A DNA stretch of 64,000 nucleotides from an uncultured bacterium (GCA_963729625.1 CAVSOU010000009.1:1-64000); one strand, 5' to 3'; shown: positions 7,637-46,408, counted from the stretch's first letter. Program-made: numbers and translations. Notes: generated by a model not told the origin, from the sequence alone.

Positions 7637-8190
7637 CAGCGCCACCCTTCCACGCCGTAGAGGGCATCATAGGCGGCAGTCGGCCGCTGGAGCACGGTCG
7701 GTGCCGGGAGCTGATGCGCCAAGGGTTGCTGCTGACGGCGCAGCGATGTGGCCGGCAGGACGTCGCGGAACTGCTCAGGATGGGTAACGATCTCCCCCGA
7801 GCGGGCCTGCTTGGGGAGCTGGGCCAGCTGCTCGCCGTGCCGCCAGATGGAGAGGTGGGCGCCATGGTCACGCACCTGCACCGTGCTGCCTGCCGCGCTG
7901 GCCGCGGAGGGCAGACCGTAGAGGACGCCGTCGAAGGAGAGATAGCCGTCCCAACTTACGCGGCGCTCCTCGGTCGCAAAGCGCTCCCAGGCGAAGGCCG
8001 CCGGCAACGGGCGCAGCTGCTCGGCGGCAAGCAGGTCACAGGGACGCTGTCGGGTGGTGCGGTGCACACGCCCATTGCGCCGATCACACCAGGCCAGGGC
8101 CTGCAGATTGAGGTCATCCAGGTCGCCAAAGTGCGCCCCGGGCCAGAGACTCCGTTTGACGACCCCAATCGTGCGCTCGATCTTCCCCTT
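7636..8190 (-). pseudogene. istA: IS21 transposase IstA, C-terminal part
   Basis: KGKIERTIG...RVHRTT...RRVSWDGYLSFDGVLY, continuing the 11597-12276 part. Confidence 0.9.
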
Positions 8191-8225
8191 GGACAAAGCT
8201 AGGCAATGCACCGGATGGCACTGGT

Positions 8226-8525
8226 GTGGCAGAAACCTTCAGCGTCACGCACCCATTCCACCCCTGGCATGGGCGCAGCTACGGCGTGCTGGCCCAGAAG
8301 TACCGCTGGGGTGATCAGCGCGTGTACTTCCAGGATGAGCAGGACCGCCTGCGGTCGCTCCCGCTCGCCTGGACCAGTCTGGCCGCACCAGACCCATTCG
8401 TGGCCCGTGCCGCGGGTCGCGCGTTCTTCCGGCCTGCCGATCTGCTGGCGGTTGCCCTGCTTTGCCAGCGGCTAGACAGCGTCTTATGCACAGGGCGAGG
8501 CCACGATGAGCAGTCAAAGGTGTAA
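8226..8525 (+). CDS. DUF5372 (Y4bD/Y4pK)-like protein; likely true 5' end lies at the other end of the element
   Basis: VTHPFHPWHG...LP.AWTSL...DPF...GRAFFR..DLL. No clear RBS before GTG 8226. Confidence 0.8.
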   Translation: MAETFSVTHPFHPWHGRSYGVLAQKYRWGDQRVYFQDEQDRLRSLPLAWTSLAAPDPFVARAAGRAFFRPADLLAVALLCQRLDSVLCTGRGHDEQSKV

Positions 8526-8562
8526 GCTCAATTATGCCGCATGTGTAAAGGGAATTATGCCG
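8521..8562 (+). repeat. Two 19-bp direct repeats TGTAA-N4-AATTATGCCG, putative operator
   Basis: Copies at 8521-8539 and 8544-8562, with an inverted related copy at 8712-8730. Confidence 0.7.
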
Positions 8563-8691
8563 TCCGGTGGCAGGGACCGTGAGACTTGCCCGCAGCCACT
8601 CTACCCGATCGTCGCTGCCTGTTCTCAGGAAACTTGCGAGAATGGTCCTCGCAATGGCCACGATGTGCTTGGCTCTCGGGGGCGATTCTGC

Positions 8692-8720
8692 TTGCACAAC
8701 GGCACCATGATGGTCATAAT
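8692..8720 (+). promoter_or_regulatory. Sigma70-like promoter of the HTH-small ORF-recombinase operon
   Basis: TTGCAC-N17-CATAAT upstream of an AGGAG RBS and ATG 8755. Confidence 0.65.
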
Positions 8721-8754
8721 GAGTTTGACATATCGGCCGTTGCAGGAGAGTCGC

Positions 8755-9270
8755 ATGCCTACCACCACCACTGCTGATGATGAGAAAGTCGCCGCTCTGC
8801 GCCTCGCTCACGCCCTGCATCATCAGGCTGCCCTGGTGACGGACCCGGCGTTTGGCGCAGGACAGTCGTTCTTTGATGCACGGGATCTGGTGCAAGTGAA
8901 GTACGAAATGTTGCGCCGGGTGCACGTCGACGGCCATAGCGTGAGCCAGGCGGCTCACGCCTTCGGGTTTTCCCGACCCTCATTCTATGCGGCACAGCGG
9001 GCCTGGCTGGCCGCCGGACTGGCTGGCCTGATCCCTCAGCGGCCTGGGCCACGCCGCGCGTCCAAGTTGGCACCCGCCTTGATGGCGTTTGTGGACGGCT
9101 GTTTGCACCGTGAGCCCACCTTGCGGGCACGCGATCTTGCCGCTCGACTCGCGGAGCAATTCGGCGTGCAGGTGCACCCCCGGAGCATTGAGCGGGCCTT
9201 GGTACGCCGGGGAAACCCGTTGCTGGCGCGGCTGCCGCGCCAGTTCCGAGAGGAGGAGCTGAGTCCATGA
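8755..9270 (+). CDS. Helix-turn-helix protein of the recombinase element
   Basis: FFDARDLVQVKYEMLR...FGFSRPSFY...GL.GLIPQRPGPR...VHPRSIERAL, with an RBS before ATG. Confidence 0.85.
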   Translation: MPTTTTADDEKVAALRLAHALHHQAALVTDPAFGAGQSFFDARDLVQVKYEMLRRVHVDGHSVSQAAHAFGFSRPSFYAAQRAWLAAGLAGLIPQRPGPRRASKLAPALMAFVDGCLHREPTLRARDLAARLAEQFGVQVHPRSIERALVRRGNPLLARLPRQFREEELSP

Positions 9271-9521
9271 GCGCTGTCTATGAAACCTTGCGCGGTGCTG
9301 CCCAGCTGCAGCAGCTGCCCGTCGCCTTCGCCCGCGATTGGGAGCTGCTGCGGCGGCAGGGTATGACGGCCTGGTTGCAGGCGTCTCCGGCGCTCGCACC
9401 GCCGACCCAGCTCACGTGGTCCCTGGCCAAGCCAGCCGGTGCGCCCGCGTGCGTGTTGCCTGCTCTGGCGCACCTGCTCAGCGCGATGATTCTCGCTCAG
9501 CGAGGGGAGCACGCCCCATGA
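9267..9521 (+). CDS. Small hypothetical protein of the recombinase element
   Basis: GGAGG RBS, ATGA overlaps on both sides, YE.LR...LL.RQGMTAW motif. Confidence 0.75.
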   Translation: MSAVYETLRGAAQLQQLPVAFARDWELLRRQGMTAWLQASPALAPPTQLTWSLAKPAGAPACVLPALAHLLSAMILAQRGEHAP

Positions 9522-11590
9522 TGGCTGCACAGGAGAAAGTCAGTGCCCAGCATCTTGCCCGTATGGCCTACCTGTATGTCCGCCAAAGCACGGTGCGCCA
9601 AGTGTTTGAGAACACGGAAAGCACGGTGCGGCAGTATGCGCTGCGCGAGCGGGCCATCGCACTGGGGTGGCCTCCAGAGCGCATCGTCGTCGTAGACAGT
9701 GACTTGGGGCAGTCTGCAGCCTCGGCGGTCGACCGCGCCGGCTTCCAGACGCTTGTCGCCGAGGTCGGCTTGGGGCATGTCGGCATAGTCCTTGGTCTGG
9801 AAGTGTCGCGCCTGGCGCGCAACAACAGTGACTGGCATCACTTGCTGGAGATCTGCGCCTTGACCGAGACCTTGATCCTGGATGAGGACGGCATCTATGA
9901 TCCCGGTCACTTCAACGATCGCCTCTTGCTCGGCTTGAAAGGCACGATGAGTGAGGCCGAGCTCCATGTCTTGCACGCCCGGCTTCGTGGCGGCATTCTG
10001 AGCAAGGCCCGGCGAGGAGAATTGCCGATCCCGTTGCCGATTGGTTTTGTGCGCACCGAAAACGGTACGGTGGTGCTCGACCCTGACGCGCAGATCCAAC
10101 ACGCCGTCCGGCTGTTCTTCGCCACGTTCGCGCGCACCGGCTCCGCCTGGACGACGGTCAAGGTATTCCGAGAGCAGGGCTTGCTCTTCCCGCGTCGTCT
10201 GCACAGCGGCCCCCATAAGGGTGAAGTGCTCTGGGCGCCGCTCTTGCATAGCACCTGCCTGCATCTCTTGCACAACCCACGCTATGCCGGGGCGTCCTTT
10301 TTTGGTCGCACCCGCCAGCACAAACTGGGAGACGGCCGGGTGCGCAGTCGCCTTCTGCCGCAGGACCACTGGCTGGCCCTGCATCAGAATGCGCATGCCG
10401 GCTACATCAGCTGGGCCGACTTTGAACAGAATCGGGCGCGTCTGCTCGAGAATGCCCAGGCGTGCGGCCAGGACCGGCGACACGGGCCGCCACGGGAGGG
10501 GCCGGCGCTGCTGCAGGGTCTCGTCCTGTGCGGCCGGTGCGGGGAGCGGATGACGGTGCGTTATCATCGGCACCACGCGCAGCTCATGCCAAGCTACCTC
10601 TGCCAGCGTGTCGGGATTGAGCACGGCGACCATCTCTGCCAGGTCGTGCCGGGGGCACGTCTGGACCAGTTGATCGGGGAGTTGTTGGTCGCTACGATGA
10701 CCCCCGCCAGCGTGGAGGTCGCACTCGCCGTGCAAGCGGAAGTCGCGCAGGACGTGGAAAACACGGACCGCCTGCGCTTGCTGCAGGTAGAGCGCGCTCG
10801 CTACGACGCCGATCTCGCAGCCCGGCGCTTCCGCCAGGTGGATCCTGACAATCGCCTGGTCGCGGCCGTCCTGGAAGCGGAGTGGAACGAGCAATTGCGC
10901 CTGCTCACAGAGGCCCAGGCGACGTACGATCAGCAGTGCCAGGCCGATCGGCAACAGATCAGCGCGCACGACCGGGCGGCCCTCGTGGAGCTGACCGCGG
11001 ACTTTGCCCGTCTCTGGCGTGACCCGCACACTCCCGACCGCGAGCGCAAACGCATCGCACGTCTTCTCCTCGCGGATGTGACCATCACCAAACAGGACGA
11101 CCATATCCTGGCCCAAGTCCGCTTCGTCGGCGGCGCAACCCGCACACTGCAGGTTCCCTTGAGCCATGACTCCAGCCAGTTCCACACCACCGACCCGGCT
11201 ATCGTGGCCCAGATAGACGACCTGCTCGACCAGTACACGGATGCCGGTGTGGCGCAGGTGCTCAATGAACGTGGCCTCCAGACCTTCACGGGGCGCCCAT
11301 TCACCGCCACCCGCATCACCAGCCTGCGAAAGCGGTGCCACCTACGGGACCGCTACACCAGATTGCGCGCGGCAGGCTTGTTGACCCGCCGCGAGATGGC
11401 CGCGATTCTGGGCATCTCGACTGCCACGGTGCCGGTCTGGCGAGACCAGGGTACGCTCCGCGCCTACACCTATAATGATCAGGGTGCCTGCCTCTATGAG
11501 CCGACCGGCAACTGCCCGCCGCAGAAATACATCACCCGCTACCGTACGCGAAGAATCCTACAGCAGCAGCATGTTGGAGGTGCAGTATGA
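9518..11590 (+). CDS. Large serine recombinase (resolvase, recombinase, zinc-ribbon and C-terminal HTH domains)
   Basis: AYLYVRQST catalytic Ser, EVSRLARN, LL.NPRYAG, LLQGLVLCGRCG. Confidence 0.95.
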   Translation: MMAAQEKVSAQHLARMAYLYVRQSTVRQVFENTESTVRQYALRERAIALGWPPERIVVVDSDLGQSAASAVDRAGFQTLVAEVGLGHVGIVLGLEVSRLARNNSDWHHLLEICALTETLILDEDGIYDPGHFNDRLLLGLKGTMSEAELHVLHARLRGGILSKARRGELPIPLPIGFVRTENGTVVLDPDAQIQHAVRLFFATFARTGSAWTTVKVFREQGLLFPRRLHSGPHKGEVLWAPLLHSTCLHLLHNPRYAGASFFGRTRQHKLGDGRVRSRLLPQDHWLALHQNAHAGYISWADFEQNRARLLENAQACGQDRRHGPPREGPALLQGLVLCGRCGERMTVRYHRHHAQLMPSYLCQRVGIEHGDHLCQVVPGARLDQLIGELLVATMTPASVEVALAVQAEVAQDVENTDRLRLLQVERARYDADLAARRFRQVDPDNRLVAAVLEAEWNEQLRLLTEAQATYDQQCQADRQQISAHDRAALVELTADFARLWRDPHTPDRERKRIARLLLADVTITKQDDHILAQVRFVGGATRTLQVPLSHDSSQFHTTDPAIVAQIDDLLDQYTDAGVAQVLNERGLQTFTGRPFTATRITSLRKRCHLRDRYTRLRAAGLLTRREMAAILGISTATVPVWRDQGTLRAYTYNDQGACLYEPTGNCPPQKYITRYRTRRILQQQHVGGAV

Positions 11591-11596
11591 GACCCA

Positions 11597-12276
11597 CCCC
11601 TTCGTCTGGGGGGTGTAGGGCTTACAGACGCGAATGCTCAGGCCCACGGAGGCGGCAAAGTCGGCAAAGCGGGCATTCCAGACTGGGATCTGGCCGTCCA
11701 TGTCGACCAGCACGCTCTTCATGCGGTCCGTCAGCGCCACCTGCGGCAGACCGCCAAAGTACTCGCAGGCCCGCATCAGGCCGCGAATCAAGGTCGATGT
11801 ATCACAGCGCTTGCTGAACTGCACAAAGCGCATGCGAGAATAACCCAGCACGGCCGAGAACCCGTAGAGCTTGTGTGTCGTCCCCTCTCGCTCGTAGACA
11901 AACTCGCCCCAATCGAACTGTAGTTGCTCCCCCGGTCCCGTCTCGTACCGCACCACCGGCTGGTGCCCGGCCGTCCCCAGTCGAAAGGGCTGCACAAAGT
12001 CCTTCAAAATGGTGATGCTGCCCGTATACCCCTGCGCCTGCAGCCGCTCGCGCATCGTCTCACAGTTATAGAGATGATCCTCGCGCAGCCAGGCCATGAT
12101 CTGCTCCTTATAGGGATCCAGCTTCGACCGCCGCCGCGGCCGTGCTGCTGGGGACGGCGCACCACGCAGGTACTTGCGTACCGTGTTGCGCGAATGTTGG
12201 AGTTCCCTGGCAATCGCCCGGATCGGTTTCCCTTCCGTGGCCAGTCCCAGTATCTTGTTCACGGTCCCACTCCTTA
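11597..12276 (-). pseudogene. istA: IS21 transposase IstA, N-terminal and catalytic part
   Basis: IARELQHSRNTVRKYL, RYETGPGEQLQFDW, LGYSR, TDRMK, CKPYTPQTKG. Start codon displaced to 13570-13572. Confidence 0.9.
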
Positions 12277-13565
12277 GGACCCATCCATAAATAACATTGT
12301 TACTATTTGGTGTGCGGCAGGATGGTGTAGTTCCATTCGCCATGGAAGTCGGCCCGCTCGATGTGCAGACTGTCCATCTCCGCCTCGGTTGGGGTGATGC
12401 CGGTCGGGTAGGCGTGGGTATCCAGGTAACTGGTCACGGTCAGACCCGTCGTAGTTGTCGTCGCCGCAATCAGGCTGAGGATCACCGCGTAGCTGAGCAG
12501 CGGCCGGCCCCGCCAGTTCTGGCTGATGTAGGCAAAGAGCCGGTGCTCAATCTTGTTCCACTTGCTGGTGCCCGGCGGGTAGTGGCACACCGTGATGGCC
12601 AGACCGGTCTCATCTGCCAGGCGCTGCAACTCCCACTTCCACAGGCGCACGCGCGACCCATTGCTGCCGCCGCCATCCGCGGTGATCAGCAGGCGCTGGG
12701 CCAGCGGGTAGTGCGCCTGGCCCGCTTCCTGCCACCAGCGGCGGACACTCGCCACCGCAAAGGCGGCCGTATCATGGTCGATACCGACGTTCACCCAGCC
12801 GGCATTCTCGGCCAGGTCATAAACCCCATAGGGGCTCACCCGTCCTTGGCCCGCGATGGGGAAGTCGTAGACCCGTACTTCCTCCGGCTGGCCTTTGGGT
12901 CGCCACTCCCGGCCCCCGTTCTTGAAGTCCCCGACCAGTTCTTTCTTCTTGGTGTCCACGGAGATGGCCGGCTCGCCCGCCGCCACAAACCCCGTCGCCG
13001 TGGCGTTGATGTGCTCGAACTGGGCATCGCGATCGGCATGGCCTGTCCCTTCCCAGGTCTTGCTGGCGGCCTGCAGACTGTACCGGAGTTCGTGCAGGAT
13101 GTTGGCCACTTTCTGATAGCTGACCTGATGGCCTTTCGCCTGCAATGCGGCCGTCAGCCGCCGCAGACTCAGACAAGTCCAGCGCAACGGGGATTCGGGG
13201 TCGCCGCGCGTCACCGGTTCCACCATCCCCTCCAGGTCCGCCCGCAGGCTCGGATCATGCGTCTCCAGCGACTTGCGACCGCCGCCCGGTCGGCGCACGC
13301 GTCCGGGTGCCGCGCTGGGCACCTGCCCGCTCAGTTCCCGTATCCCCAGACGGATTACCGGCCGCGACAGCCCTGTGGCCCGCGACACCAGGGTGATCCC
13401 GCCCCAGCCAACCGCTACTGCTTCTGTGGCAGCCACGGCCCGCCGCCCCCGCTCATCCAGGTGCCTCGCGACGCGGGCATACCGCTCGGCTATCCTGCTT
13501 TCCTCATCCATGCCTCCACTCTACGCTTGCCCGCTCAATCGCAAACGTTGTTTGTTGATAAGTCC
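12277..13565 (-). mobile_element. ISAzo13-family insertion sequence
   Basis: Imperfect 19-bp inverted repeats GGACccATCcAtAAAtAAC and GGACttATCaAcAAAcAAC. TTA duplication at 12274-12276 and 13566-13568. Confidence 0.9.
12303..13511 (-). CDS. ISAzo13 DDE transposase
   Basis: TRGDPESPLRWT, ISVDTKKKELVG, TADGGGSNG, PPGTSKWNKIEHRLF, FHGEWNY. Confidence 0.95.
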   Translation of the reverse strand: MDEESRIAERYARVARHLDERGRRAVAATEAVAVGWGGITLVSRATGLSRPVIRLGIRELSGQVPSAAPGRVRRPGGGRKSLETHDPSLRADLEGMVEPVTRGDPESPLRWTCLSLRRLTAALQAKGHQVSYQKVANILHELRYSLQAASKTWEGTGHADRDAQFEHINATATGFVAAGEPAISVDTKKKELVGDFKNGGREWRPKGQPEEVRVYDFPIAGQGRVSPYGVYDLAENAGWVNVGIDHDTAAFAVASVRRWWQEAGQAHYPLAQRLLITADGGGSNGSRVRLWKWELQRLADETGLAITVCHYPPGTSKWNKIEHRLFAYISQNWRGRPLLSYAVILSLIAATTTTTGLTVTSYLDTHAYPTGITPTEAEMDSLHIERADFHGEWNYTILPHTK

Positions 13566-13693
13566 TTAGCAAGATTCCATCACCCTTCTCACCTGGTTCT
13601 TTGTGGAGATAAGGGTCATGGTTGGTTCAGGGGTGGGTCAACTCTTTCGGCGATCCAGGGTCAAGTCTACGCCGGCGCGGGCAAATTTGGACA

Positions 13694-13950
13694 TGCGCAC
13701 AATGACCATGGGTGATACCACCTTGTGGCTCGATTCTCTCCAGTCAATGCGTGGTCACAAGTGGAACCCGCACGGCGTGGGTGACCGCGAAGTCGGCTTC
13801 AACGACCCCGAGTACAAGGGTTGGCGCTTGTGTTTCTGCCGAGCCAACGTCATTGTCTCGTTCACGTTCTTTCACACAAACTCTGATATAGCAGGCCAGT
13901 ACGTGCGCATCGTGGACGGGCGTATCAAGCATTACCTGGATACTCATTAG
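13694..13950 (+). pseudogene. Hypothetical ORF, possibly 5'-truncated by IS21
   Basis: Protein-like frame beginning right at the IS end. Confidence 0.35.
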
Positions 13951-14394: not shown

Positions 14395-15207
14395 ATGGTC
14401 GCTCTCAAACGGAGAATAGGATCACGGGGCCGGCTGCGCTTAGCGCTGACGCTCGTCATCTCACTGGCCTGGACGCTGCCCCGTGCACAGGCCAGCCCCG
14501 CTAAGCTGCAGGTTTACGCGTCGCTGATGGGCACGATCGATTACGCGCAGCGGGTGAACAGCAGCATGACGTCCCGCAACGGAGATCAGACGACAAGCAG
14601 TTCGCACGACGACCTGCACACGACACACGTCATTGTGAATGCGCTCTACAACGACAAGGGCGGGTACTACGCGAGTGTGACTGAGAGCATATCCGATCAC
14701 GACGGCAATCTGACTACTACCCGCTCAAAGGATTCATGCAAGGATGTCCAGTACTCCACCGCAGACAAGTCAGGCAGCAACTACACGGTCACTGCCAAAT
14801 ACACCGGACACGCCTGGGTGCGTCCGTACGTCATGGACACAGGCCGGGATTTTGTGCATCCGCACTTCCAGGATCCCTACCAGCTTCAGCTGGGATTCAT
14901 TCTGCCCCAGTTTAGGGGCGAAGCACACTCGGAACGGTTCGACATCAATAACGATCCGTGCGTCACGGCGCCCCCTATACATGATGTGGATACGTATACC
15001 GAGTTGGAAGACCATCAACCGACCGGCATGTGGGAGGGGCATCCCGACAAGCATCCCAAGAGCGCGCGCACTCTCACTGGCAAGGTCATCACGATCGATC
15101 AGGTCCCGGATCCCGAACACGGTACGGCTACGACGACGATCACCTGGCGTTTGAACTACTGCGAGAAGCAGAGCGCTTCACAACCTGCCGGGCCGTGGAA
15201 GTGCTGA
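14395..15207 (+). CDS. Secreted hypothetical protein
   Basis: GGAGG RBS, signal peptide ending AQA, Thr/Ser/Asp-rich, four Cys. Confidence 0.75.
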   Translation: MVALKRRIGSRGRLRLALTLVISLAWTLPRAQASPAKLQVYASLMGTIDYAQRVNSSMTSRNGDQTTSSSHDDLHTTHVIVNALYNDKGGYYASVTESISDHDGNLTTTRSKDSCKDVQYSTADKSGSNYTVTAKYTGHAWVRPYVMDTGRDFVHPHFQDPYQLQLGFILPQFRGEAHSERFDINNDPCVTAPPIHDVDTYTELEDHQPTGMWEGHPDKHPKSARTLTGKVITIDQVPDPEHGTATTTITWRLNYCEKQSASQPAGPWKC

Positions 15208-16221: not shown

Positions 16222-16440
16222 CTATGCTGCGTCCGCATGCCCGCGGCCTCGCCGCTCCGGACCAGCCGTGCTTACGCATACTGGTGTAACGTCTCCAGCA
16301 GCCGGTAGCGCACCACGTCGCCGTTTCGCTCTTCCGGCTGCACCAGCGACTTGTCCACCAGCCGCAGCATCCCGTCGAGCACCTCATCTGCCGCCGGTTC
16401 GTCGTCCGCGCGCGCCGCCTCGGCCGCCTCCAGAGGAGCA
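16222..16440 (-). pseudogene. Winged-helix fragment of an ATPase/TPR regulator
   Basis: EVLDGMLRLVDKSLV...RYRLLETLHQYA*ARLVRSGEA, with an in-frame stop. Confidence 0.75.
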
Positions 16441-16601
16441 TCGGGCAAAACTGCGTATTCACGTGGGTGGTCTCGTGGTCGGTTCTGCCTGTTCCCGTAT
16501 GGGAATCGCCCGTCCGCCGGCGCAGACTGTGGTCGTGACGTAGAAGGACGCCGCGAGGAATCGGAGAAGCCGGAAGACCGGCAGGACGAAAGGAGACCAC
16601 G

Positions 16602-16826
16602 GTGAGGCGACAGAACGAGTTCCACCTGGACCATGAGCTGGCGAGAGCCCATCAAGCGCAGATGCGTGACGAGCGGTCCGTCGACCGGCTTGCGCAACAA
16701 GCGACTGCCGGAGCGGAGCCCAGGGCGGCAGTCGATATCACGGTGCAAGCGCGGGCAAAACGCGTCCCGCTTCTCTACAGGCTCAACGTCGGTCGTATCC
16801 TGCGCATGCACCTGATGCCTCGTTAG
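16602..16826 (+). CDS. Small hypothetical protein
   Basis: AAGGAG RBS before GTG, 74 aa, directly upstream of the repeat protein. Confidence 0.6.
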   Translation: MRRQNEFHLDHELARAHQAQMRDERSVDRLAQQATAGAEPRAAVDITVQARAKRVPLLYRLNVGRILRMHLMPR

Positions 16827-16883
16827 CGATGCTTGTCCGTTGGCAGATGAGAGCGAGTACAGATTGAAGAAAGGGCTGGCACG

Positions 16884-17885
16884 ATGAACCTTCGACACGT
16901 TTCCGCGGCTGTGGTAGGCGTTGCAGTACTCTTTGGCGCGACCGGCATGGGCCTTGCATTCGCGAGCGCGACCAGGCAGACAGCTTGTCCGTCGGCACTC
17001 GTCGCCGGACGGCCCGGCGCTCTTGCCGCGGGCGCCAATCGCATTGCCTTCTCCGGGCGGCCGAGTGCCAATGCGGCCAATCGTTACGACTTCTCCGGTC
17101 AGCCGAGTGCGAATGCCGCCAATCGTTACGCCTTCGCCGGGCGACCGAGTGCGAATGCCGCCAATCGTTACGCCTTCGCCGGGCGGCCGAGCGCGAATGC
17201 AGTCAATCGTTATGCCCTCTCCGGTCGGCCGAGTGCGAATGCCGGCAATCGTTACGCCTTCGCCGGGCGGCCGAGTGCGAATGCCGCCAACCGTTACGCC
17301 TTCTCTGGCCGGCCGAGTGCGAATGCAGTCAATCGTTACGCCTTCTCCGGCCGGCCCACTGCCAATGCTGCCAATCGCTCTGCCTTCTCTGGCCGGCCGA
17401 GCGCGAATGCAGTCAACCGTTACGCCTTCTCCGGTCGGCCCACTGCCAATGCGGCCAATCGTTACGCCTTCGCCGGGCGGCCGAGCGCGAATGCAGTCAA
17501 TCGTTACGCCCTCTCTGGCCGGCCGAGCGCGAATGCAGTCAATCGTTACGCCTTCTCCGGGCGGCCGAGTGCGAATGCCGCCAATCGTTACGCCTTCTCC
17601 GGGCGGCCGAGTGCGAATGCCGCCCGGCAGCCCCTGATGCAGCGCCACTTGGCCGGCACGCCGCCCGCGCTCAGTAAGGCTCGTAGCCTGAGTGGTGTTG
17701 CGCCCAGCCCGTCTGGCCGGGGACCCAGCTTGCTGCACCGTGCCTCCTTGGTAGGCCGCCCGGCCCCGCTAGCCATCCATCGGACTCTGAGCGGCACTGG
17801 TCTGGCTGTCGCCAACATCCACTTGGCTCCCAGCAGCGTTCGGACCATGAAGGATGCTGCAGCCCAATGCCGTTACCTTGTTTGA
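16884..17885 (+). CDS. Secreted tandem-repeat protein (14 copies of NRYAFSGRPSANAA)
   Basis: Signal peptide ending ASA. Many repeat variants are synonymous in this frame. One Cys on each side of the array. Confidence 0.8.
   Translation: MNLRHVSAAVVGVAVLFGATGMGLAFASATRQTACPSALVAGRPGALAAGANRIAFSGRPSANAANRYDFSGQPSANAANRYAFAGRPSANAANRYAFAGRPSANAVNRYALSGRPSANAGNRYAFAGRPSANAANRYAFSGRPSANAVNRYAFSGRPTANAANRSAFSGRPSANAVNRYAFSGRPTANAANRYAFAGRPSANAVNRYALSGRPSANAVNRYAFSGRPSANAANRYAFSGRPSANAARQPLMQRHLAGTPPALSKARSLSGVAPSPSGRGPSLLHRASLVGRPAPLAIHRTLSGTGLAVANIHLAPSSVRTMKDAAAQCRYLV
17037..17624 (+). repeat. Tandem array of 14 x 42 bp
   Basis: Consensus AATCGTTACGCCTTCTCCGGGCGGCCGAGTGCGAATGCCGCC, contiguous, without spacers. 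Confidence 0.97.
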
Positions 17886-18193
17886 GCCCTATCCCTTCGG
17901 TGCCGGGCGGTGAGACGATCGCCGCCCGGCACCGGCGATCGACGGTCGAGTGCGACCACATTGCGCGGGCTGAGCAGGCGCGCTACACTGGCGCCAGCAA
18001 GCTGTTCCTATCTGTTCCGGCAGGTCTCGATGGACGCGATAATGGCTCTCGTGACCACGCTGCACGGATACCAAACTCCGGCAATGGCGACGTTGGCCTC
18101 ATTCGCGGCAATGCGCCAATCACCTCGCGCCCGTAGCCGGCCACGCGCTGTGGCCGACTGAGGCAGTGGGCATTGAGTAGAGGGGGTTACGAC

Positions 18194-20005
18194 ATGGCAC
18201 CAGTTCGGATCGCTTTGCGGATCGTTTTGCTGGCTTTGTTGTGCATCACACTTCAGGCCGCGCCCGGGCACGCCGCTGTCGGCGCGACTCAGCAGCGCCA
18301 CCGAGGCACCCTCACGATTGCCTACTCCTCCGCGTGGTCCTATGTCCGGCTCGGCCCGATTGGCCCGTTCGCCTACAACGGCGACAACTTGGGCGCCCAA
18401 CCACTCGTGGACGGTCCGTTTGCCGTCGACGACAAGGGCCGGTACGTCGCCGATCTGGCGACTGTCGTGCCCAGCGTCACGAACGACGGCATCCGCGTGA
18501 TCAACGGGGATGAGGTGGCGACGGTCCACCTCAAGCCGGGCCAGCGCTGGTCGGACGGCTCCCCCATCACGCCAGCGGACTACATCGGTGCCATGCTTCT
18601 CAGCGACGCTCCGGCTGTGCGGTGCCCGTGCCTCACGGTGATCAAAGGCGTGACGGCCTCGACCAGCACCGTCACCATCACTTTTGCCGGCATCTTTGGG
18701 CCGGAGCTCCCCGGCATCTTTCCCGCTCCCATGCCGATCGAGTACCTCCAGCGCAAGTACGGGGTGCGGCTCCCCGCCAAGCTCCTGGTTTCCTTCAGCC
18801 CGGCTGATGCCGGCGCGCTCTACGCTAGCCCATCCTACCAGGGCTCGGCACTGCAGCGGCTGGTCCAGCACTGGGGCCAGGATCCCTATAACAGCGTGGG
18901 CGACCTGTATAGTGGCCCCTACATGCCCGCCCAGCCGACGACTGAGACACTGCAGGTCCTGGTGCCCAACCCTTATTACGCCGCGCTGCCGCCTGACCCC
19001 CACCATCCCCGTCCGGCGCAGATCCGCACCGTCGTGCTCTCCGGCGACTACTTGAAAGCCGTCACCGCACCTGGAGCACAGATCTACGATTGGACGCTTT
19101 ATCCCGACCTCACCGCTGAGCCCGCCAACCTTCAATCCCTCCTAACGCAGGCAGGCTACCGCCTGGTGCTGGAACACGACTACGGGGTTGAGTTCCTGGA
19201 GCTGAACCTGGCCACGCCGGCACTCCGCGACGTGCGGGTGCGGCAAGCGATCTCCTACGCGATCGACCGGGAAGCGTACCTGCGGGCCATCTACCCGCAG
19301 CTATCCGCCGTGCAGCGCGATGCCTCGATGCTTGCGGCACCCTTCCCCCTTACGTCGCCCTGGTCGATCAACGACCAGCTGTCCCGAAATCCCTACGATC
19401 CGGCCAAGGCGCGTGCCCTGCTGGCGGCGGCCGGCTATGCCAGCAGGCCGGGCGCGCCGGGGCGGCACCTAAGTCTGGACTTCGTCACCAGCGGAGCGCC
19501 CTATCGGGTAACCAGCGGACGAACGCTGCGGCGGCTGCTGGCGCCCTTCGGCATCACGCTGCGGCTGCAGTTTGTGCCGCAGCGCGCCCCGATCGGCCTG
19601 TTCGCCCCTTACGACCAGGGCGGCGTCCTGGCGCGCGGTCGCTTCGACATCGCGCAGATTCTGGATCTGGATGGCATCGAGCCCAGCCCTAACTTGACGT
19701 CGGGCTTCGACCCCGGCCAGATTCCGGACGCAAACCATCCCAACGGTATCAATTATGGCGGTGTGCGTGACGTGCGGCTCCTGCAACTGGCGACGCAAGC
19801 GACACGCACGCTGGACGACGGAGTGCGCTACCAGCTCTCCGCACAGGCGCAGCGCCTGATCGTCGACGACGCCTACTGGATTCCGCTCTTCGACCCGCCG
19901 CACGTTGCCGCGCTGCGTACGACGTTTGGCAATTATCGGGGTGGTGGAGACGCGTGGTCCGATTCCTGGAACGCCTTCGCGTGGTACCGGAATGCCGCGC
20001 ACTGA
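18194..20005 (+). CDS. Family 5 (peptide/nickel) extracellular solute-binding protein, paralog 1
   Basis: LKPGQRWSDGSPIT, DVRVRQAISYAIDRE, YDPAKARALL. Confidence 0.9.
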   Translation: MAPVRIALRIVLLALLCITLQAAPGHAAVGATQQRHRGTLTIAYSSAWSYVRLGPIGPFAYNGDNLGAQPLVDGPFAVDDKGRYVADLATVVPSVTNDGIRVINGDEVATVHLKPGQRWSDGSPITPADYIGAMLLSDAPAVRCPCLTVIKGVTASTSTVTITFAGIFGPELPGIFPAPMPIEYLQRKYGVRLPAKLLVSFSPADAGALYASPSYQGSALQRLVQHWGQDPYNSVGDLYSGPYMPAQPTTETLQVLVPNPYYAALPPDPHHPRPAQIRTVVLSGDYLKAVTAPGAQIYDWTLYPDLTAEPANLQSLLTQAGYRLVLEHDYGVEFLELNLATPALRDVRVRQAISYAIDREAYLRAIYPQLSAVQRDASMLAAPFPLTSPWSINDQLSRNPYDPAKARALLAAAGYASRPGAPGRHLSLDFVTSGAPYRVTSGRTLRRLLAPFGITLRLQFVPQRAPIGLFAPYDQGGVLARGRFDIAQILDLDGIEPSPNLTSGFDPGQIPDANHPNGINYGGVRDVRLLQLATQATRTLDDGVRYQLSAQAQRLIVDDAYWIPLFDPPHVAALRTTFGNYRGGGDAWSDSWNAFAWYRNAAH

Positions 20006-20079
20006 GCGGACCGCGCTCCTGGCTGACTCTGCGCGCTGGCTGGCTGGGGCACTGTACGCGGAGTAGAGGAGGTCCCGAC

Positions 20080-21918
20080 ATGGCACCAGTTCGGATCGTT
20101 ATTCGGCTCGTTCTGCTCAGCCTGCTGTGCGGCGTGTTCCCGGCAGCGCCCAGGTCCACTGTTGCCGGAGCGACTCAACAGCGCTACTCCGGTACCCTCA
20201 CGCTGGCCTGGTACAACTGGTCCACGGAGACGCTCAGTTATGCTGGACCCTTCCCCTATGGTGGGGCGGGACTGGGGAGTGGGGGAAGTTGGTACGGCGC
20301 CCAACCACTGGTGGATACTCCTATCACCGTCGACGACCGTGGCCGGTATTTCGCCGATCTGGCCACGGTCGTGCCCACCGTCGCCAACGGCGGCGTCCGC
20401 GTGGTCAACGGGGATGAAGTCGTGACCGTCCGCCTCAAGCCGGGCCAGCGCTGGTCCGATGGTTCCCCTATCACGCCTGCCGACTACACCGGTTCCATGC
20501 TCCTCAGCTATGCTCCCGTGTGGGGTAGTGCGTTTCTCCCCTACAAGACCGTGACGGCCTCGCCGAGTACGCTCATCGTCACCTACGACGGCATCGTTGG
20601 CCCGGCCCTCGACAACAGTATTCCCGCCCCCATTCCCATCGAGTACCTCCAGCGCAAGTACGGCGTGCGGCTCTCCGCCAAGCTGCTGGCCTCCTTTAAT
20701 TCGGTGGATGCCGCCGCACTCTATGCCAGCCCCTCCTACCAGGGCTCGGCCTTGCAGCGGCTAGTGCAGCGGTGGAGCCAGGATCTCTACAACGGCCCGG
20801 GCGATGTGTTCAACGGTCCCTACATGCCCGCCCGGCCGTTTACCGCTCAGCTCGCGATCGAAGTACCCAACCCCTATTACGCCGCGCTGGCGCCCGATCC
20901 GCGCCATCTCCGCCCGGCGCAGATCCGCACGGTCGTGCTTAAAGGTGACTACCTCAAGGCCGTCACCGCGCCCGGAGCGCGGAACTACGATTTCGTCACT
21001 TTTCCATTTCCCGAGCTGGCTGCCGAGCCCGCCGACCTGCAGTTCCGTCTGGCACGGGCCGGCTATCGGGTGGTGCTGGCGCACAACCAGTACCTTGAGC
21101 ATTTGGAGCTGAACCTGGACAGCCCGGCACTGCGGGACGTGCGGGTGCGGCGTGCACTGTCCTACGCCATTGACCGGGAGGCCTACCTGCTGGCAGTCCT
21201 CCCGCAACTCACGCCCGCGCAGCGCGACGCCACGCTCGATGCTGCGCCGTGGCCCTTCACCTCACCCTGGTCGATCAACGGCCAGCTACCCCGCAATCCC
21301 TACGATCCGGCAAAGGCGCGTGCCCTGCTGGCGGCGGCCGGCTACGCCACCAGTGCGGGCGGGCCTGGGCGGCACCTCAGCCTGGACTTCGTGACCAACG
21401 CATCGCCGTTTCGGGCGACCAGTGCGCGCACGTTGCAGCGGCTGCTGGCGCCCTTCGGTATCACCCTGCGTCTCCACTTTATCTCGCAGCACGCCCCGAT
21501 CGGCCTGTTTGCCCCCTATGACCAGGGCGGCGTCCTGGCGCGGGGCCACTTCGACATCGTGGAGTTTGCGTACGGGACCAATGTTGAGCTAGCCGCCTCT
21601 GCCACGCCCTTGTTCGACCCCGGCCAGGTCCCGGACGCCAACCATCCCAACGGCGAGAACTATAGCAGAGTGCGTGACGTGCCGCTCCTCCAGCTGCTGA
21701 CGCAGGCAACGCACACGCTGGACGACGGGGCACGATATCAGCTCTCCGCGCAGGTGCAGCGCCGGGTCGTCGACAACGTCTACTGGATCCCGCTCTTTGA
21801 CTGGCCGTACGTCGTCGGGCTGCGCGCGACGTTTGGCAATTTCCGGGCGGGTTCGTTGAACTTTCCCATGACTGAGTTCTGGAATGCCTTCGAATGGTAT
21901 CGGAGCGGCACGGATTGA
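20080..21918 (+). CDS. Family 5 extracellular solute-binding protein, paralog 2
   Basis: Same motifs as paralog 1. GGAGG RBS and a duplicated ATGGCACCAGTTCGGATCG start. Confidence 0.9.
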   Translation: MAPVRIVIRLVLLSLLCGVFPAAPRSTVAGATQQRYSGTLTLAWYNWSTETLSYAGPFPYGGAGLGSGGSWYGAQPLVDTPITVDDRGRYFADLATVVPTVANGGVRVVNGDEVVTVRLKPGQRWSDGSPITPADYTGSMLLSYAPVWGSAFLPYKTVTASPSTLIVTYDGIVGPALDNSIPAPIPIEYLQRKYGVRLSAKLLASFNSVDAAALYASPSYQGSALQRLVQRWSQDLYNGPGDVFNGPYMPARPFTAQLAIEVPNPYYAALAPDPRHLRPAQIRTVVLKGDYLKAVTAPGARNYDFVTFPFPELAAEPADLQFRLARAGYRVVLAHNQYLEHLELNLDSPALRDVRVRRALSYAIDREAYLLAVLPQLTPAQRDATLDAAPWPFTSPWSINGQLPRNPYDPAKARALLAAAGYATSAGGPGRHLSLDFVTNASPFRATSARTLQRLLAPFGITLRLHFISQHAPIGLFAPYDQGGVLARGHFDIVEFAYGTNVELAASATPLFDPGQVPDANHPNGENYSRVRDVPLLQLLTQATHTLDDGARYQLSAQVQRRVVDNVYWIPLFDWPYVVGLRATFGNFRAGSLNFPMTEFWNAFEWYRSGTD

Positions 21919-21922
21919 GCGG

Positions 21923-24900
21923 TCAGCAGAGCGGGCGGCGAGGCTCGCCGCTGAGATACTGCGACCACTCCACCGGTGACAGTTCGCGGTTGGCCTGGGC
22001 ACAGGCGCGCGCGGTCCAGGTCGGCACGCCCATCTGCCAGAGGCGGACGGTGCCATCGGCGCCGGCGGAGAGCAGCAGCCGGCCATCGCGACTGAAGGCT
22101 AGGCCGCTGACAGCATCGCCGTGGCCGGTGAGCGGCGCGCCGATAGGCTGCCCACTGGCCACATCCCAGAGCCGCACCGTGGTGTCGGCGCTGCCGGAGG
22201 CGAGGGTGGTGCCGTCGGGACTGAAGTCCAGGCTTGTGATGCTGTCGGTGTGGCCGCCGAGCGGCGGGCTCGCCGGCAGGCCGGTGGCGGCGTTCCAGAG
22301 ATGGATTTCCCGATCCGTGCCTGCAGTGGCCAGCAGCTTGCCGTCCGGGCTGAACGCCACGCTATTCACGCTGCCCGTGATGCCGGCAAAGGGCAGGTCG
22401 ATCTGCCGCCTGTGAGCCAGATCCCACACCTCGATGGATCCATCGCCCGCGCCCACGGCGAGCCGTCGCCCATCCGGGCTGAAGGCCACGCTGTAGATCC
22501 CGTAGCCGTTGGTCGTCAGCGGCTCGCCCAGTCGTCTACCGTGTGCCACGTCCCACAGCATGAGGCTCCCATCGTTATTGCCGCTCCCCGAAGCCAATAT
22601 CCTGCCGTCCGGGCTGAATGCCAGGCAGATCACCACATCGGTGTGGCCGGTGAGCACGCCGAGCTCGCGGCCGCTCGCCGTGTCCCATAGACGTACCTGG
22701 TTATCGTTGCTGCCGGAGGCCAGCAGCCTGCCGTCCGGACTGAAGGCCACGCTCACCACCGAGTCTGTATGGCCCCGCAGCATGGCACGGACGCGGTGGT
22801 GTGCAAGGTCATAGAGCCAGACGTCGTTCCCGCTGCCGGAAGCCAGCAGGTCGCCACGCCGGCTGAGCGCCAGGCCCGCCGCGCCGCCGCCGGGCACGGC
22901 GATGGGGAGGCTCAGCGAGGAGGCACGTTCCACCGACCACAGCCCGATCGTGCCGTCCGCTTTGCCCGCCGCGAGCGTGCTGCCATCCGGGCTGAACGCC
23001 AGGTTGTTCACTGCTCCCGTGCGGCCGGGGAACGGGGCGCCGATCTGCTGCCTGCTCTCCACGTCCCACAACCGCACGGTCTGGTCGGCGCTCCCCGAGG
23101 CCAGCAGCATGCCGTCCGGACTGAAGGCCAGGCTGGTGATGCGACCGGTATGTCCGCTGAGAAGGCTGGCCGGTCGCCCGAGTGCCACATCCCACAGCCG
23201 GATAGTGCGGTCGTCGCCGCCGGAGGCCAGCAGCGAACCGTTCGGGCTGAAGGCGACGGCAGTCACGCTGCCGGTATGACCACGTAGCGGGGGGCCGACG
23301 GTGCGACCGCGCGCGATGTCCCAGAGACGGATCGTGCCGTCTGCAGCGCCGACGGCGAGGAGACTGCCGTTAGGGTCGAAGGCCAGGCTGCCCGGGTAGC
23401 TGACGTGGTCGCTCAGCGGCTGGCCGACCGGCCGCCCGTGTGCCACGTCCCACAGCCGGATGTAGGCATCACTGCCGCCGTAGGCCAGCACCGGCGCGAC
23501 CGGGCTGAACGCGAGATTGGTGATACTGCCCTGCTGGCCGAGACTGCCACCGCCCGGCGAACCGGCAAGCACCTCGGCCGTAGGCCGGCGCGCGGTCAGG
23601 TCCCACAGCCGGATAGTGCCGTCAAGGCTCGCCGAGGCCAGCGTCCTGCCGTCGTGGCTGATGGCGATGCTGGTCACGCTCTCGCTGTGCCCGGTGAGCG
23701 GTTGCCCGCGCGGCTGCCTGCTGGCGAGATCCCAGAGTCGAATGGTCTTATCCGTGCCGCTCGAGGCCAGGGTCTTGCCGTCGGGGCTGAACGCCAGGCT
23801 CAGCACCGGACCCTGATGGCCGGAGAGGAAGGCTATCAGCCGCGGGTCGTGCTGCAGGTTGCGCAGGAGGCTGTCGCGCGCCTCCGCCGTATCGTGGACC
23901 CGACTGGCAGCGACGCTCAGCAGGAGCGCCAGGTCGGGCGCATCGTCCATGTGGGTGAGCGCCTGCGCGGAGAGCTGGCGGGATAGCGAGATCTCGCGCT
24001 CGGAAAGCGCCAGGTTCCTCGCCTCCGCGGCACTCCTGGCGTTGTCATCGGCGGTGTTCGCCTTCTCGAGGGCCAACACACTGAGCCCGGCGGACACCAC
24101 CAGGAACACCACCAGCACGCCCGCCAGGTAGCGCATGCGGGTGGCCGCGCTTCGGTTGGCCTGAGCGGCGGCGCGGGCCAGCGCCAGTTCCCGCGCGTGC
24201 TGCTCCTGTTCCGCCGCTGCCTGGCGCACCCGCTCCGCCACGCCCGCCTGCAGGAAGGCCCCTTCTGTCGCACTCGGGGTGTTCCGCTCCTGCCAGCCCA
24301 ATGCTTCGTCGAGCAGCGCGCCACGATAGACCCGGTCGGCCGGACTGCAGTGCTGCACCCACTCCGCCGCGTCGGCGCTGATCGCGTGCTGCATGCGGAT
24401 GTCCTCCCGTGCCTCCCGCAGCCAGTCCGCCACGCGACCCCACTCGCGGATCAGCGCCTCGTGACTCACCTCGATCGTGGTCACGCCTGCGTGCTCGTTG
24501 GTTACCAGCAGGCGCGCCGCCACGAAGGCGTCCGCCACCTCGCGCATGACTTGGCTTTGCGTGGGGTCGGACGGCTCGAGCTCGGCCAGGGCGGCGCGGC
24601 GCCGAGTGGTGTCCTGCTCGGTTGCGCCCGGGTCAATCAGCCGCAGATACAACGCCCTCGCCAGCCGCCGATGCTCGTCGGACGGCAGCGCGGCAAAAGT
24701 GGCTTCGGCATGGCGGGCCAGCGCTCCGCGCACGCCGCCCAGCTCCCGGTAGGCAGCGAGCGTGATAGTCCGGCCTTCCCGCCGATCGAAGAGCTGATCC
24801 AGCGTGAACTGCATCAGCGGCAGCGCGCCCACCTCGCCTCGCACCTCGAAGAGCAGGTCGCCGACCAGGTCGGGCTCAAAGCCGATTTGCACGCCGGGCA

Positions 24901-26263
24901 GCGAGGCAGGGCCATCGATAGCCTCGCGCAACTCAGCGACGGTCATGGGCGGGATCAACCTGCTCCGGCTCTGCAGCAGGCCGACCAGCGAGCCATAGCG
25001 CAATGGCCGGTCGTAGAAGTCGGCGCGCAGGGTCACGATAGCCAGGAGCGGCCCGCGCGGTTCGGTCACGGCGGTGACCAGCAGGTCGACGAACTGCTGT
25101 CGCTCGTCCTCATCAAGCGCGAGGGTGAACAGCTCCTCGAACTGGTCCACCACCAGCACGACTTTGCTGCCTGCCTGGCGTGCCAGCCCGCTAGCCAGCA
25201 GGTGCAGGGCGCGTGGTGACGTTTCCAGGTCCTCGCCGATCGCCGACAGGCTGCCGGCGGGCATGGCCGCGTGCAGGGCGACAGTCAATGCCTCGACAGG
25301 GTGCGTGCCGGGCACCAGCGGCTCCAGGTAGATCCATCGCTCGCTGCCCGGCAGTGCCCCGGCTTGCAAGGCGGGCAGCATGCCGGCCTGCACCAGGCTG
25401 GACTTGCCCGAGCCGCTCGGCCCTACCACCGCGAGGAAGCGGGGCGCACCCGCTAGATCCGCCTGGAGGCCGGCGATCAGCGTTGCGACGAAGCGCGCGC
25501 GGCCAAAGAAGTCGCGGGCATCCGCTCCGGTGAAAGCACGAAGTCCCTTGTAGGGGTTGCGCGGCGCCGGGCTCGACGGCGACGCGGTGCGGTAGGCCGG
25601 CGCCGTGTGACGGTTCTCGCTGCGGAGCATACCGAGCAACTCGTGCATGCCGGAGGCGTAAGCGGCGCCGCGAAGGTCGAGGTAGCGCACCTGGCTCCAG
25701 CCGGGCGGGGCGCAGTCCGGCCAGTGCTCCCCGGCTACCCAGAGCGGCTGCACCGTGCTCGCATACATCTCGGCAATACGCAGGACATCGGCCACGTAGC
25801 GCGAGGCGCGGGCGAGCGGCGAGACGAGCAGCAGCACCGCTTGGGCGCTGCGCAGCGCGTCCCGGAGGACATGCTCCCTGGCGGCAGTGCCCGGCTTCAG
25901 CTCATACCCGTCCAGCCAGCCGGCCAAGCCGCCTGCCCGCAGGTCTACGAGCAGTCGTTCGGCTGTAGCAAAATCCTCGGGCGCAGTGCAGATGGCGACG
26001 AAGGGTGGCTCGGGCAGGGCCATGCCCCGGTGCCGGCGTGCAGCGTCCTCCAGCACCGCACGCTCCCCGGCATCCAGCTTGAGCGCGGCGATTAGCAACT
26101 CCTGGGTCGCCGCGTGCGGCGCGCTGCTGATACCCCGCTCCAGGTCGCTCAAGCCCCGCAAGCTGATACCGGCCGCCTCGGCCAGCTCTTCCTGCGTGAG
26201 CCCTGCCCTGCCGCGGTAGCGCTTGAGCACCTCGCCAAAAGACTGAGACTGCTGCGTGGGCAT
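21923..26263 (-). CDS. XRE HTH-TIR-like-nSTAND1 NTPase-transmembrane-WD40 protein
   Basis: LTQEELAEAAGIS, NPYKGLRAF, GPSGSGKSS, VVDQFEELF, one hydrophobic helix, 14 WD40 repeats. GGAGG RBS before ATG 26263. Confidence 0.92.
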   Translation of the reverse strand: MPTQQSQSFGEVLKRYRGRAGLTQEELAEAAGISLRGLSDLERGISSAPHAATQELLIAALKLDAGERAVLEDAARRHRGMALPEPPFVAICTAPEDFATAERLLVDLRAGGLAGWLDGYELKPGTAAREHVLRDALRSAQAVLLLVSPLARASRYVADVLRIAEMYASTVQPLWVAGEHWPDCAPPGWSQVRYLDLRGAAYASGMHELLGMLRSENRHTAPAYRTASPSSPAPRNPYKGLRAFTGADARDFFGRARFVATLIAGLQADLAGAPRFLAVVGPSGSGKSSLVQAGMLPALQAGALPGSERWIYLEPLVPGTHPVEALTVALHAAMPAGSLSAIGEDLETSPRALHLLASGLARQAGSKVVLVVDQFEELFTLALDEDERQQFVDLLVTAVTEPRGPLLAIVTLRADFYDRPLRYGSLVGLLQSRSRLIPPMTVAELREAIDGPASLPGVQIGFEPDLVGDLLFEVRGEVGALPLMQFTLDQLFDRREGRTITLAAYRELGGVRGALARHAEATFAALPSDEHRRLARALYLRLIDPGATEQDTTRRRAALAELEPSDPTQSQVMREVADAFVAARLLVTNEHAGVTTIEVSHEALIREWGRVADWLREAREDIRMQHAISADAAEWVQHCSPADRVYRGALLDEALGWQERNTPSATEGAFLQAGVAERVRQAAAEQEQHARELALARAAAQANRSAATRMRYLAGVLVVFLVVSAGLSVLALEKANTADDNARSAAEARNLALSEREISLSRQLSAQALTHMDDAPDLALLLSVAASRVHDTAEARDSLLRNLQHDPRLIAFLSGHQGPVLSLAFSPDGKTLASSGTDKTIRLWDLASRQPRGQPLTGHSESVTSIAISHDGRTLASASLDGTIRLWDLTARRPTAEVLAGSPGGGSLGQQGSITNLAFSPVAPVLAYGGSDAYIRLWDVAHGRPVGQPLSDHVSYPGSLAFDPNGSLLAVGAADGTIRLWDIARGRTVGPPLRGHTGSVTAVAFSPNGSLLASGGDDRTIRLWDVALGRPASLLSGHTGRITSLAFSPDGMLLASGSADQTVRLWDVESRQQIGAPFPGRTGAVNNLAFSPDGSTLAAGKADGTIGLWSVERASSLSLPIAVPGGGAAGLALSRRGDLLASGSGNDVWLYDLAHHRVRAMLRGHTDSVVSVAFSPDGRLLASGSNDNQVRLWDTASGRELGVLTGHTDVVICLAFSPDGRILASGSGNNDGSLMLWDVAHGRRLGEPLTTNGYGIYSVAFSPDGRRLAVGAGDGSIEVWDLAHRRQIDLPFAGITGSVNSVAFSPDGKLLATAGTDREIHLWNAATGLPASPPLGGHTDSITSLDFSPDGTTLASGSADTTVRLWDVASGQPIGAPLTGHGDAVSGLAFSRDGRLLLSAGADGTVRLWQMGVPTWTARACAQANRELSPVEWSQYLSGEPRRPLC

Positions 26264-26554
26264 GCCACCCTCCGCCTGCCAACTCCCCAGCCCGCCGGTG
26301 CGGATCCGCATCGCAAGTGCGCCAGCAGCTATCGGCACCTAGCATACGCTATTGCTGCCGTGCATGCCCACCGCGGAATCAAACATGAGGGTGTCCTCCT
26401 GTGCTCGTCCGTGGCAGCGGGTCAGTCCGGCAATGCGGCACGCGTGGCGGGGCTCCTGGGAGGGGCCGCCTCAGTCATGACCTGCGCTCCCGGCACAATC
26501 CTGCCGCCGGACGAACACGTGATGGGTCGTATCGTGAGCACGGCGACCCGATGC

Positions 26555-46406: not shown

Positions 46407-46408
46407 TC

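Follow-up and report, generated by a model that had tools for sequence, protein, structure and literature searches.

A polycationic tandem-repeat protein, putatively exported, from an uncultured bacterium and its two metagenomic relatives

Introduction

A stretch of DNA of 64,000 nucleotides from an uncultured bacterium (the window, G+C content ~63%) contains an open reading frame, here designated P0001, whose central part is built of short and nearly identical tandem repeats. This locus raises the question whether such a repeat belongs to a genuine, translated gene and, if so, to which family its product can be assigned and what function it may have. The initial annotation, made from the sequence alone, had described a secreted and strongly basic protein of no recognised family, and had offered as alternatives a precursor of many cationic peptides, a beta-solenoid or functional amyloid, and a surface protein binding polyanions.

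The gene and its reading frame

The following features were assigned to the locus:

16884..17885, + strand: open reading frame of P0001, complete, with ATG start, 333 aa plus stop; polycationic tandem-repeat protein, putatively exported
16866..16875, + strand: Shine-Dalgarno-like purine-rich stretch GAAGAAAGGG, a partial match read from the sequence, ending 8 nt before the ATG
16884..16964, + strand: signal-peptide-like N-terminus, residues 1-27, with MNLRH, a hydrophobic core and A-F-A before Ser28
16965..17036, + strand: linker rich in Ala, Ser, Thr and Gly, residues 28-51, with Cys35 (codon 16986-16988) and a weak partial unit AGRPGA at residues 41-46
17037..17624, + strand: 14 tandem units of 14 aa (42 nt each), residues 52-247, consensus NRYAFSGRPSANAA
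17625..17882, + strand: basic tail rich in Pro, Ser, Leu and Gly, residues 248-333, with the motifs RQPL..R.LA.TP and APSPSGRG.SLL and Cys329 (codon 17868-17870)
17897..17935, + strand: G+C-rich hairpin of 17 bp, beginning 12 nt after the stop; terminator-like, without a T-run

No sigma-70-like promoter was found between 16400 and 18300. The hairpin, detected as an inverted repeat and unique in the window, has a fold energy of -46.4 kcal/mol (z = -5.06, equalled in 0 of 200 shuffles) and was not called by a consensus terminator scan. Factor-independent terminators without a T-run occur in high-G+C bacteria, and the hairpin may represent such a terminator or an element stabilising the mRNA. Its location after the stop codon suggests that the P0001 gene is a stand-alone transcription unit.

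Stop codons are absent from the array in all three + frames and in one - frame, so that an open frame there does not, taken alone, argue for coding. We therefore rely on the differences among units, on codon usage and on the flanks. Compared to the consensus, codon differences among the units comprise 33 synonymous and 18 non-synonymous changes in + frame 0; the corresponding values are 6/45 and 3/40 in the other + frames, and 6/45, 22/21 and 5/46 in the antisense frames. When distinct variants were counted, 13 of 23 were synonymous and 10 non-synonymous in + frame 0, with 26% synonymous expected (p=0.002), and a rough omega of 0.27 for the units was derived from these counts. The antisense frame sharing the wobble positions ranked second (12/23 synonymous, p=0.011). 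The codon-usage score of + frame 0 was the highest of the six frames (0.587, the others 0.51-0.56), at the low end of the range of confident genes of the window (0.58-0.74). Furthermore, + frame 0 is the sole frame that stays open through the non-repeat flanks, and the protein sequence of these flanks is conserved in two relatives described below. The synonymous excess, the best codon usage and two relatives with the same start, frame and flanks thus support that the gene is genuine and, as far as the sequence can tell, translated in + frame 0. Judged by these codon counts, we show here that the repeat unit is under purifying selection.

The repeat array and its flanks

Tandem Repeats Finder located the array at 17046-17624 with a period of 42 nt, 13.8 copies, 85% matches and a score of 808. 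In protein register it comprises 14 complete units (residues 52-247), in agreement with the 14 near-identical 14-residue repeats of the initial annotation. A degenerate codon-level pattern of the unit matched 11 times in the window, always within the array, with 0 matches expected from 100 shuffles. N1, R2, G7, P9, A11, N12 and A13 are invariant in all 14 units; positions 3, 4, 5, 6, 8, 10 and 14 vary, with conservative changes (F/L at 5, S/A at 6, S/T at 10, A/V/G at 14). Mean pairwise identity among the units is 85% for nucleotides and amino acids alike. Units 13 and 14 as well as 4 and 11 are identical at the DNA level, other units diverge by up to 12 of 42 nt with the peptide retained, and no higher-order structure is evident among the repeats. 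Most of the variation within the array resides at even positions, where 14 minor residues occur versus 4 at odd positions (p=0.03). Beta-strands constrained on a single face would be expected to alternate in this way.

The N-terminus, inspected by eye, shows the n/h/c layout of a signal peptide with R4, hydrophobic residues at 6-24 and A-F-A at 25-27, in line with the signal peptide of the initial annotation, and residues 4-24 are helical in the AF2 model. We infer a Sec signal with a cleavage site after about 27 residues. The presumed mature form of 306 aa would have a mass of ~31.5 kDa and a pI of 12.0. With 41 Lys and Arg versus 2 Asp and Glu, the protein is indeed strongly basic and nearly devoid of acidic residues. 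The low-complexity tail of 86 aa had been thought to consist of degenerate xxGxP repeats; an HMM of the 14 units detected no copy in residues 248-333, and upstream of the array only the weak partial copy AGRPGA. The xxGxP repeats are a visual pattern only. In a charge-hydropathy plot the array falls on the disordered side (H 0.427 versus a boundary of 0.461), and the value for the complete mature chain nearly coincides with the boundary between order and disorder (H 0.456 versus 0.458).

Database searches

P0001 and both relatives matched no Pfam family even at E<=10. NCBIfam returned one chance match of 12.9 bits, far below the cut-off of 125, a search of PDB sequences gave no match at E<=10, and the ESM Atlas held no usable match. 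The initial statement that no family can be recognised holds in all these resources. An exhaustive phmmer search of 1.84 billion representatives at E<=0.001 yielded 225 matches; of the 150 that were listed, P0004 alone matches P0001 in both flanks, N- and C-terminal. Nine other matches inspected proved to be unrelated repeat proteins (tail-fibre-like, adhesin-like and others) with a period of 14 residues in eight cases and of 7 residues in one, and were rejected as matches of periodicity and composition. Many copies in phase multiply what is a modest match per unit, and this accounts for their E-values.

A word-indexed homolog search with the whole protein, which low-complexity words probably overwhelmed, scored 8000 candidates, none of them significant; when it was restricted to residues 1-51, 1336 candidates were scored, again without a significant one. 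Scanning the contigs of 185,579 species-representative genomes gave 599 pattern matches for P0001 and 75 for a binding protein encoded downstream of it, of which none was confirmed in either case. Against plasmids, tblastn produced 18 weak matches to the repeat; none covers 80% of the query, and identity does not exceed 34% in the 10 records listed. One of them, annotated as 'YadA-like', was set aside, as the match lies on the antisense strand of that gene. No paralog of P0001 was found within the window, and a search of the literature on bacterial secreted arginine-rich disordered repeat proteins gave nothing pertinent among the papers listed.

Relatives of P0001

Two metagenomic relatives, P0004 (153 aa) and P0152 (180 aa), bring the family to three members among ~15 billion proteins. 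They share with P0001 the start MNLR, the predicted signal peptide, the frame, units of the type R-[Y/H]-A-F-S-x-R and a tail with RQPL..R.LA.TP and APS.SGR..SLL. Identity in the alignment is 54-55%. BLASTP within the family gave an E-value of 2e-28 over the N-terminus and one of 1e-20 over the repeat and the tail, and phmmer with the flanks alone gave 1e-17 and 1e-8 to 1e-9; with the tail alone, only the two relatives were found at E<=1e-8. Both homologs keep the frame and no known structural repeat family matches, so that the initial annotation as a repeat protein without known family stands.

The number of units, which the initial annotation had proposed to compare, is 14 in P0001 and 3 and 4 in the relatives. 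Conservation, for which three members make a thin statistical basis, is highest in the signal-peptide region, where 3/3 members agree at 23 of the first 28 residues and keep the n/h/c layout; these residues are much better conserved than the remainder of the protein, and in the tail 25 of 86 alignment positions are invariant. The core R-[Y/H]-A-F-S-x-R is common to the units of the whole family and the remaining positions vary. R2 is invariant in 21/21 units; A4, F5 and R8 each predominate with 19/21, position 3 is Y or H in 19/21, and S6 and P9 each occur in 17/21. The second half of the unit reads S-A-N-A-A in P0001 versus T-T/V-Y-A-T in the relatives, in which G7 is found in 0/7 and P9 in 3/7 units. 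A tyrosine is usual in each unit and shifted in place, being at position 3 in 12/14 units of P0001 and at position 12 in 5/7 units of the relatives. The residue before R2 is N in 14/14 units of P0001 and K or R in 6/7 units of the relatives, which creates dibasic junctions. All three proteins are strongly basic, the ratios of K+R to D+E being 41/2, 23/5 and 26/1.

The two cysteines of the clamp proposed in the initial annotation are present in P0001 itself, where Cys35 and Cys329, the latter followed by four residues, are the only cysteines. One relative has no cysteine and the other two near its C-terminus; as Cys35 is not conserved, the clamp is not a feature of the family.

Retention of a residue type while its position moves, as seen for tyrosine, would be typical of disordered repeats driven by composition. 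Taken over 21 units, the pattern favours a putative design of motif plus spacer rather than a fold of the whole unit. Conservation in the family likewise favours a repeated linear motif in what may be an extended chain, which comes nearest to the polyanion binder among the alternatives offered initially. P0001 is the founder of a tiny, lineage-restricted family of predicted exported tandem-repeat proteins, which belong to a well-known class.

Structure prediction

A full-length AF2 run with the alignment of the three family members resulted in a mean pLDDT of 45.2, with 50-67 in the array, below 50 in the flanks and ~25-30 in the tail; one strand of 7-8 residues was predicted per unit. For the array alone, the five models reached pLDDT values of 88.8, 65.0, 60.7, 56.7 and 33.0, the best one having a pTM of 0.82 and regular strands. 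Foldseek searches of the PDB with the full-length and the array model gave no match at E<=0.001. The nearest shapes were beta-helices and amyloid subunits (SufB/SufD, tapirin, FapC and CsgA) with TM values of at most 0.43; E-values were 0.27 for FapC and 3.9 and 5.6 for two CsgA chains.

AF2 is known to be biased for such sequences (PMC11795689), and solenoid-like models are a known artefact for near-perfect repeats. Because of this bias, the solenoid-like predictions for the array were given little weight and are, as models, not trustworthy. The sequence itself gives conflicting signals: the variation at even positions is strand-like, and the array lies on the disordered side of the charge-hydropathy plot.

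A proposed role as a multivalent polycation

We tentatively favour the reading that P0001 is a Sec-exported, largely extended polycationic repeat protein that binds anionic polymers of the envelope or matrix in a multivalent manner, and regard it as plausible rather than established. After removal of a signal peptide of ~27 residues, a low-complexity and mostly extended chain would display 14 copies of the basic and aromatic motif R-[Y/H]-A-F-S-x-R(-P), separated by spacers of small residues. Outside the cell, arginines would contact phosphate, carboxylate or sulphate groups and Tyr and Phe would add aromatic contacts, so that the protein would be held on anionic polymers such as wall polymers, extracellular DNA or acidic polysaccharide. 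The length of the array would set the valency and could change by unequal recombination, as the 3, 4 and 14 units of the family may illustrate. Support comes from the array being on the disordered side, from the mean pLDDT of 45 at full length and from the genomic context, since no dedicated enzymes and no secretion or nucleator genes were found near P0001 among the ORFs scanned. The bias of variation towards even positions, the single array model at pLDDT 88.8 and the position of the mature chain close to the order/disorder boundary count against it.

Known repeat proteins provide partial parallels. Mycobacterial Erp has a signal peptide, as is predicted for P0001, and resembles it further in that short tandem repeats occupy the centre and the C-terminal part is free of repeats. 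Its unit consists of 5 aa (PGLTS) versus 14 aa in P0001, the two sequences are not similar, and Erp lacks a polycationic character of the kind seen in P0001. No PGLTS-type repeats were found in P0001, whose unit is NRYAFSGRPSANAA. The number of repeats in Erp varies between species. Erp is an analogue in architecture only and not a member of the family.

Animal repeat proteins of the resilin and mussel-adhesive types are secreted, as P0001 is predicted to be, and have low-complexity units of 14-15 residues in which G, S, P, A and N abound and one Tyr is usual. The unit encoded by Drosophila resilin exon 1 contains the tetrapeptide G-R-P-S, which is found in the P0001 unit as well. Basic plus aromatic residues on a flexible chain are a design logic common to both, and Rec1-resilin is reported to be intrinsically disordered (PMC4455251). 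These proteins are eukaryotic and no homology is implied; moreover, resilin is not strongly basic.

If P0001 indeed acts as a multivalent polycation, it would represent a compact natural bacterial extracellular polycation with a valency tuned by repeat number, relevant to the building or decoration of envelope and matrix in poorly studied bacteria and possibly useful as a protein polymer that sticks or coacervates. P0001 is one among many lineage-restricted repeat orphans, and its value lies in being a clean case under selection.

Alternative explanations

It is possible, though doubtful, that the array is of the cross-beta type, each unit supplying a rung of 14 residues, either as a narrow two-sheet beta-solenoid or as a fibre resembling functional amyloid. 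Tyr3, Phe5, Ala11 and Ala13 would then point inside and Asn, Gly and Pro would form the arcs, with ladders of arginine on the outside. The regular strands that AF2 placed in every unit, the best array model and the beta-helices and amyloid subunits nearest to it in shape are in line with this, and invariant G7, P9, N1 and N12 together with the even-position variation fit one buried face. Apart from the AF2 bias, however, the five array models disagree and confidence collapses at full length. Two uncompensated arginines per 4.8-Å rung would repel each other strongly. In addition, the relatives have only few units, lack G7 and often P9, and carry a replaced Ala/Asn half, so that the proposed solenoid core is not conserved.

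The curli subunit CsgA and Fap proteins are exported by Sec, as is predicted for P0001, and would have in common with it imperfect tandem strand-turn-strand units and Asn/Gln plus Gly at the turns; CsgA and FapC are among the weak structural neighbours of the model. Their units comprise ~19-23 aa. The 14-aa unit of P0001 is shorter and its charge is extreme, neither Curlin_rpt nor any other Pfam entry matched, and no csgB, csgEFG or fapA-F operon was present among the ORFs scanned. The head repeats of YadA form the 14-residue left-handed beta-roll of trimeric autotransporters and have in common with P0001 the 14-residue period and a partial alternation of Asn, small and hydrophobic residues. 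P0001 gave no Pfam match to a head or anchor and has no membrane anchor domain, its C-terminus being a basic low-complexity tail. A cross-beta array, if real, would constitute a new cationic cross-beta fold of the shortest rung class.

Rather unlikely is a second explanation, according to which the gene is real and functionally marginal: a young, fast-evolving orphan in a decaying region rich in IS elements, whose array would have grown recently, through slippage or unequal crossing-over, to 14 copies without specific role. Mobile-element genes do crowd the region of 6.8-13.7 kb, where the following cluster (6839-13715) was found:

6839-7645, - strand: IstB-like ATPase
8506-9270: HTH protein
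9338-11590: large serine recombinase
11558-12343, - strand: rve integrase
12303-13511, - strand: ISAzo13-family transposase

The stretch directly upstream of P0001 (15207-16884) contains only overlapping ORFs without family match. The rarity of the family, the codon adaptation at the low end of the window genes and the DNA identity of units 13/14 and 4/11 also agree with a marginal orphan. Against it, units that differ at up to 12 of 42 nt with the peptide kept and a rough omega of 0.27 indicate an array old enough to have diverged and held by purifying selection, and frame, start and tail are kept in two relatives at 54-55% identity.

Less probable still, we consider P0001 to be a Sec-exported polyprotein precursor of many cationic 14-mers with antimicrobial or signalling function, possibly bound by adjacent solute-binding proteins. 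Each unit would be cleaved behind its invariant R2 by an extracellular Arg-specific protease, from which the R8-P9 bond would be protected. The invariance of R2 in all units of the family, the dibasic junctions of the relatives and the variable copy number would suit such a precursor, as would a signal peptide far better conserved than the product region, a feature of toxin and pheromone precursors. Directly downstream of P0001 lies a pair of binding-protein genes:

18173..21918, + strand: two tandem paralogous family-5 solute-binding proteins (PF00496, E 1.3e-33 and 2.8e-30), 68% identical to each other

This pair of oligopeptide/dipeptide-type binding proteins begins 288 nt downstream of P0001, after the hairpin, and has no adjacent permease or ATPase genes. 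Adjacency alone links it to P0001; as family-5 binding proteins are common, a third one being encoded at 43779-45377, this adjacency may be due to chance. It is very unlikely that up to 14 cationic 14-mers are released and act as antimicrobials or as a diffusible signal captured by these two orphan binding proteins. The junction in P0001 is N-R and not dibasic in 14/14 units, the ORFs scanned in the vicinity include no gene for a protease, a receptor, immunity or export, the conserved 86-aa tail would have no obvious role, and the strong hairpin separates the P0001 gene from the binding-protein genes.

Multi-copy peptide precursors are exemplified by insect apidaecin, fungal repeat precursors processed by Kex2 and exported pro-peptides of the Phr type. 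Like P0001, whose signal peptide is a predicted one, they combine a signal peptide with many copies of a short peptide and basic residues at the junctions; unlike them, P0001 has an N-R junction and no processing, modifying or receptor gene nearby. Its length of 333 aa and its neighbours, which are solute-binding proteins and ORFs without family match, do not correspond to a Phr/RRNPP system, in which a small precursor would accompany the gene of a cytoplasmic TPR-type receptor. No enzyme of RiPP maturation (radical SAM, YcaO, lanthipeptide synthetase, ATP-grasp or peptidase-exporter) was detected among 26 large ORFs of the window and 23 ORFs around the gene, a scan that left out ORFs of 120-195 aa at 27-30 kb. 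The earlier remark that no modifying enzyme is adjacent thus applies to every ORF scanned from ~13.9 to 27.8 kb. To our knowledge, a bacterial Sec-exported precursor with 14 peptide copies has no precedent, and P0001 would, if it were one, be the first bacterial example of a logic so far seen in insects and fungi.

Finally, it is highly improbable that the repeat is not translated in + frame 0 and is either a non-coding 42-bp minisatellite or part of an antisense ORF (16272-17738, 488 aa). The several open frames and the synonymous excess of the wobble-sharing antisense frame lend this idea some support. Against it, the flanks are open in + frame 0 only and conserved as protein, and the antisense ORF has no family match, poorer codon usage (0.52-0.56) and a course that continues through the 5' end of the gene into the upstream stretch.

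Other features of the window

Further genes and gene fragments surround the locus:

14395-15207, + strand: hypothetical protein of 270 aa with a signal-peptide-like N-terminus, no Pfam or NCBIfam match
21923-26338, - strand: nSTAND1 NTPase fused to ~12 WD40 repeats, 1471 aa, beyond the binding-protein pair
41576-42349, - strand: ORF of 257 aa matching only the last third of the catalytic domain of class-I cysteinyl-tRNA synthetase (profile positions 217-299 of 301)

The product of 14395-15207 would be a second putatively exported protein without family near P0001. A minus-strand segment at ~16272-16430 presumably resembles the winged-helix part of STAND/NB-ARC regulators, which suggests a gene remnant upstream of P0001. 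Rfam gave 0 matches and a tRNA scan 0 genes. The IS cluster had no DNA-level match in plasmid records, and rhizobial and Streptomyces copies of its ISAzo13 transposase in these records do not exceed 63% identity. In plasmid records, too, the aldehyde dehydrogenase of the window comes closest to actinobacterial copies (~64%), and for the sugar kinase the 8 records listed stay at or below 38%, with no record attaining 60%; these homologs point to no consistent lineage. A complete peptide-type ABC system is located at 43779-49428. The ORF with the cysteinyl-tRNA synthetase match may belong to a gene that has been truncated, or its limits may have been set incorrectly.
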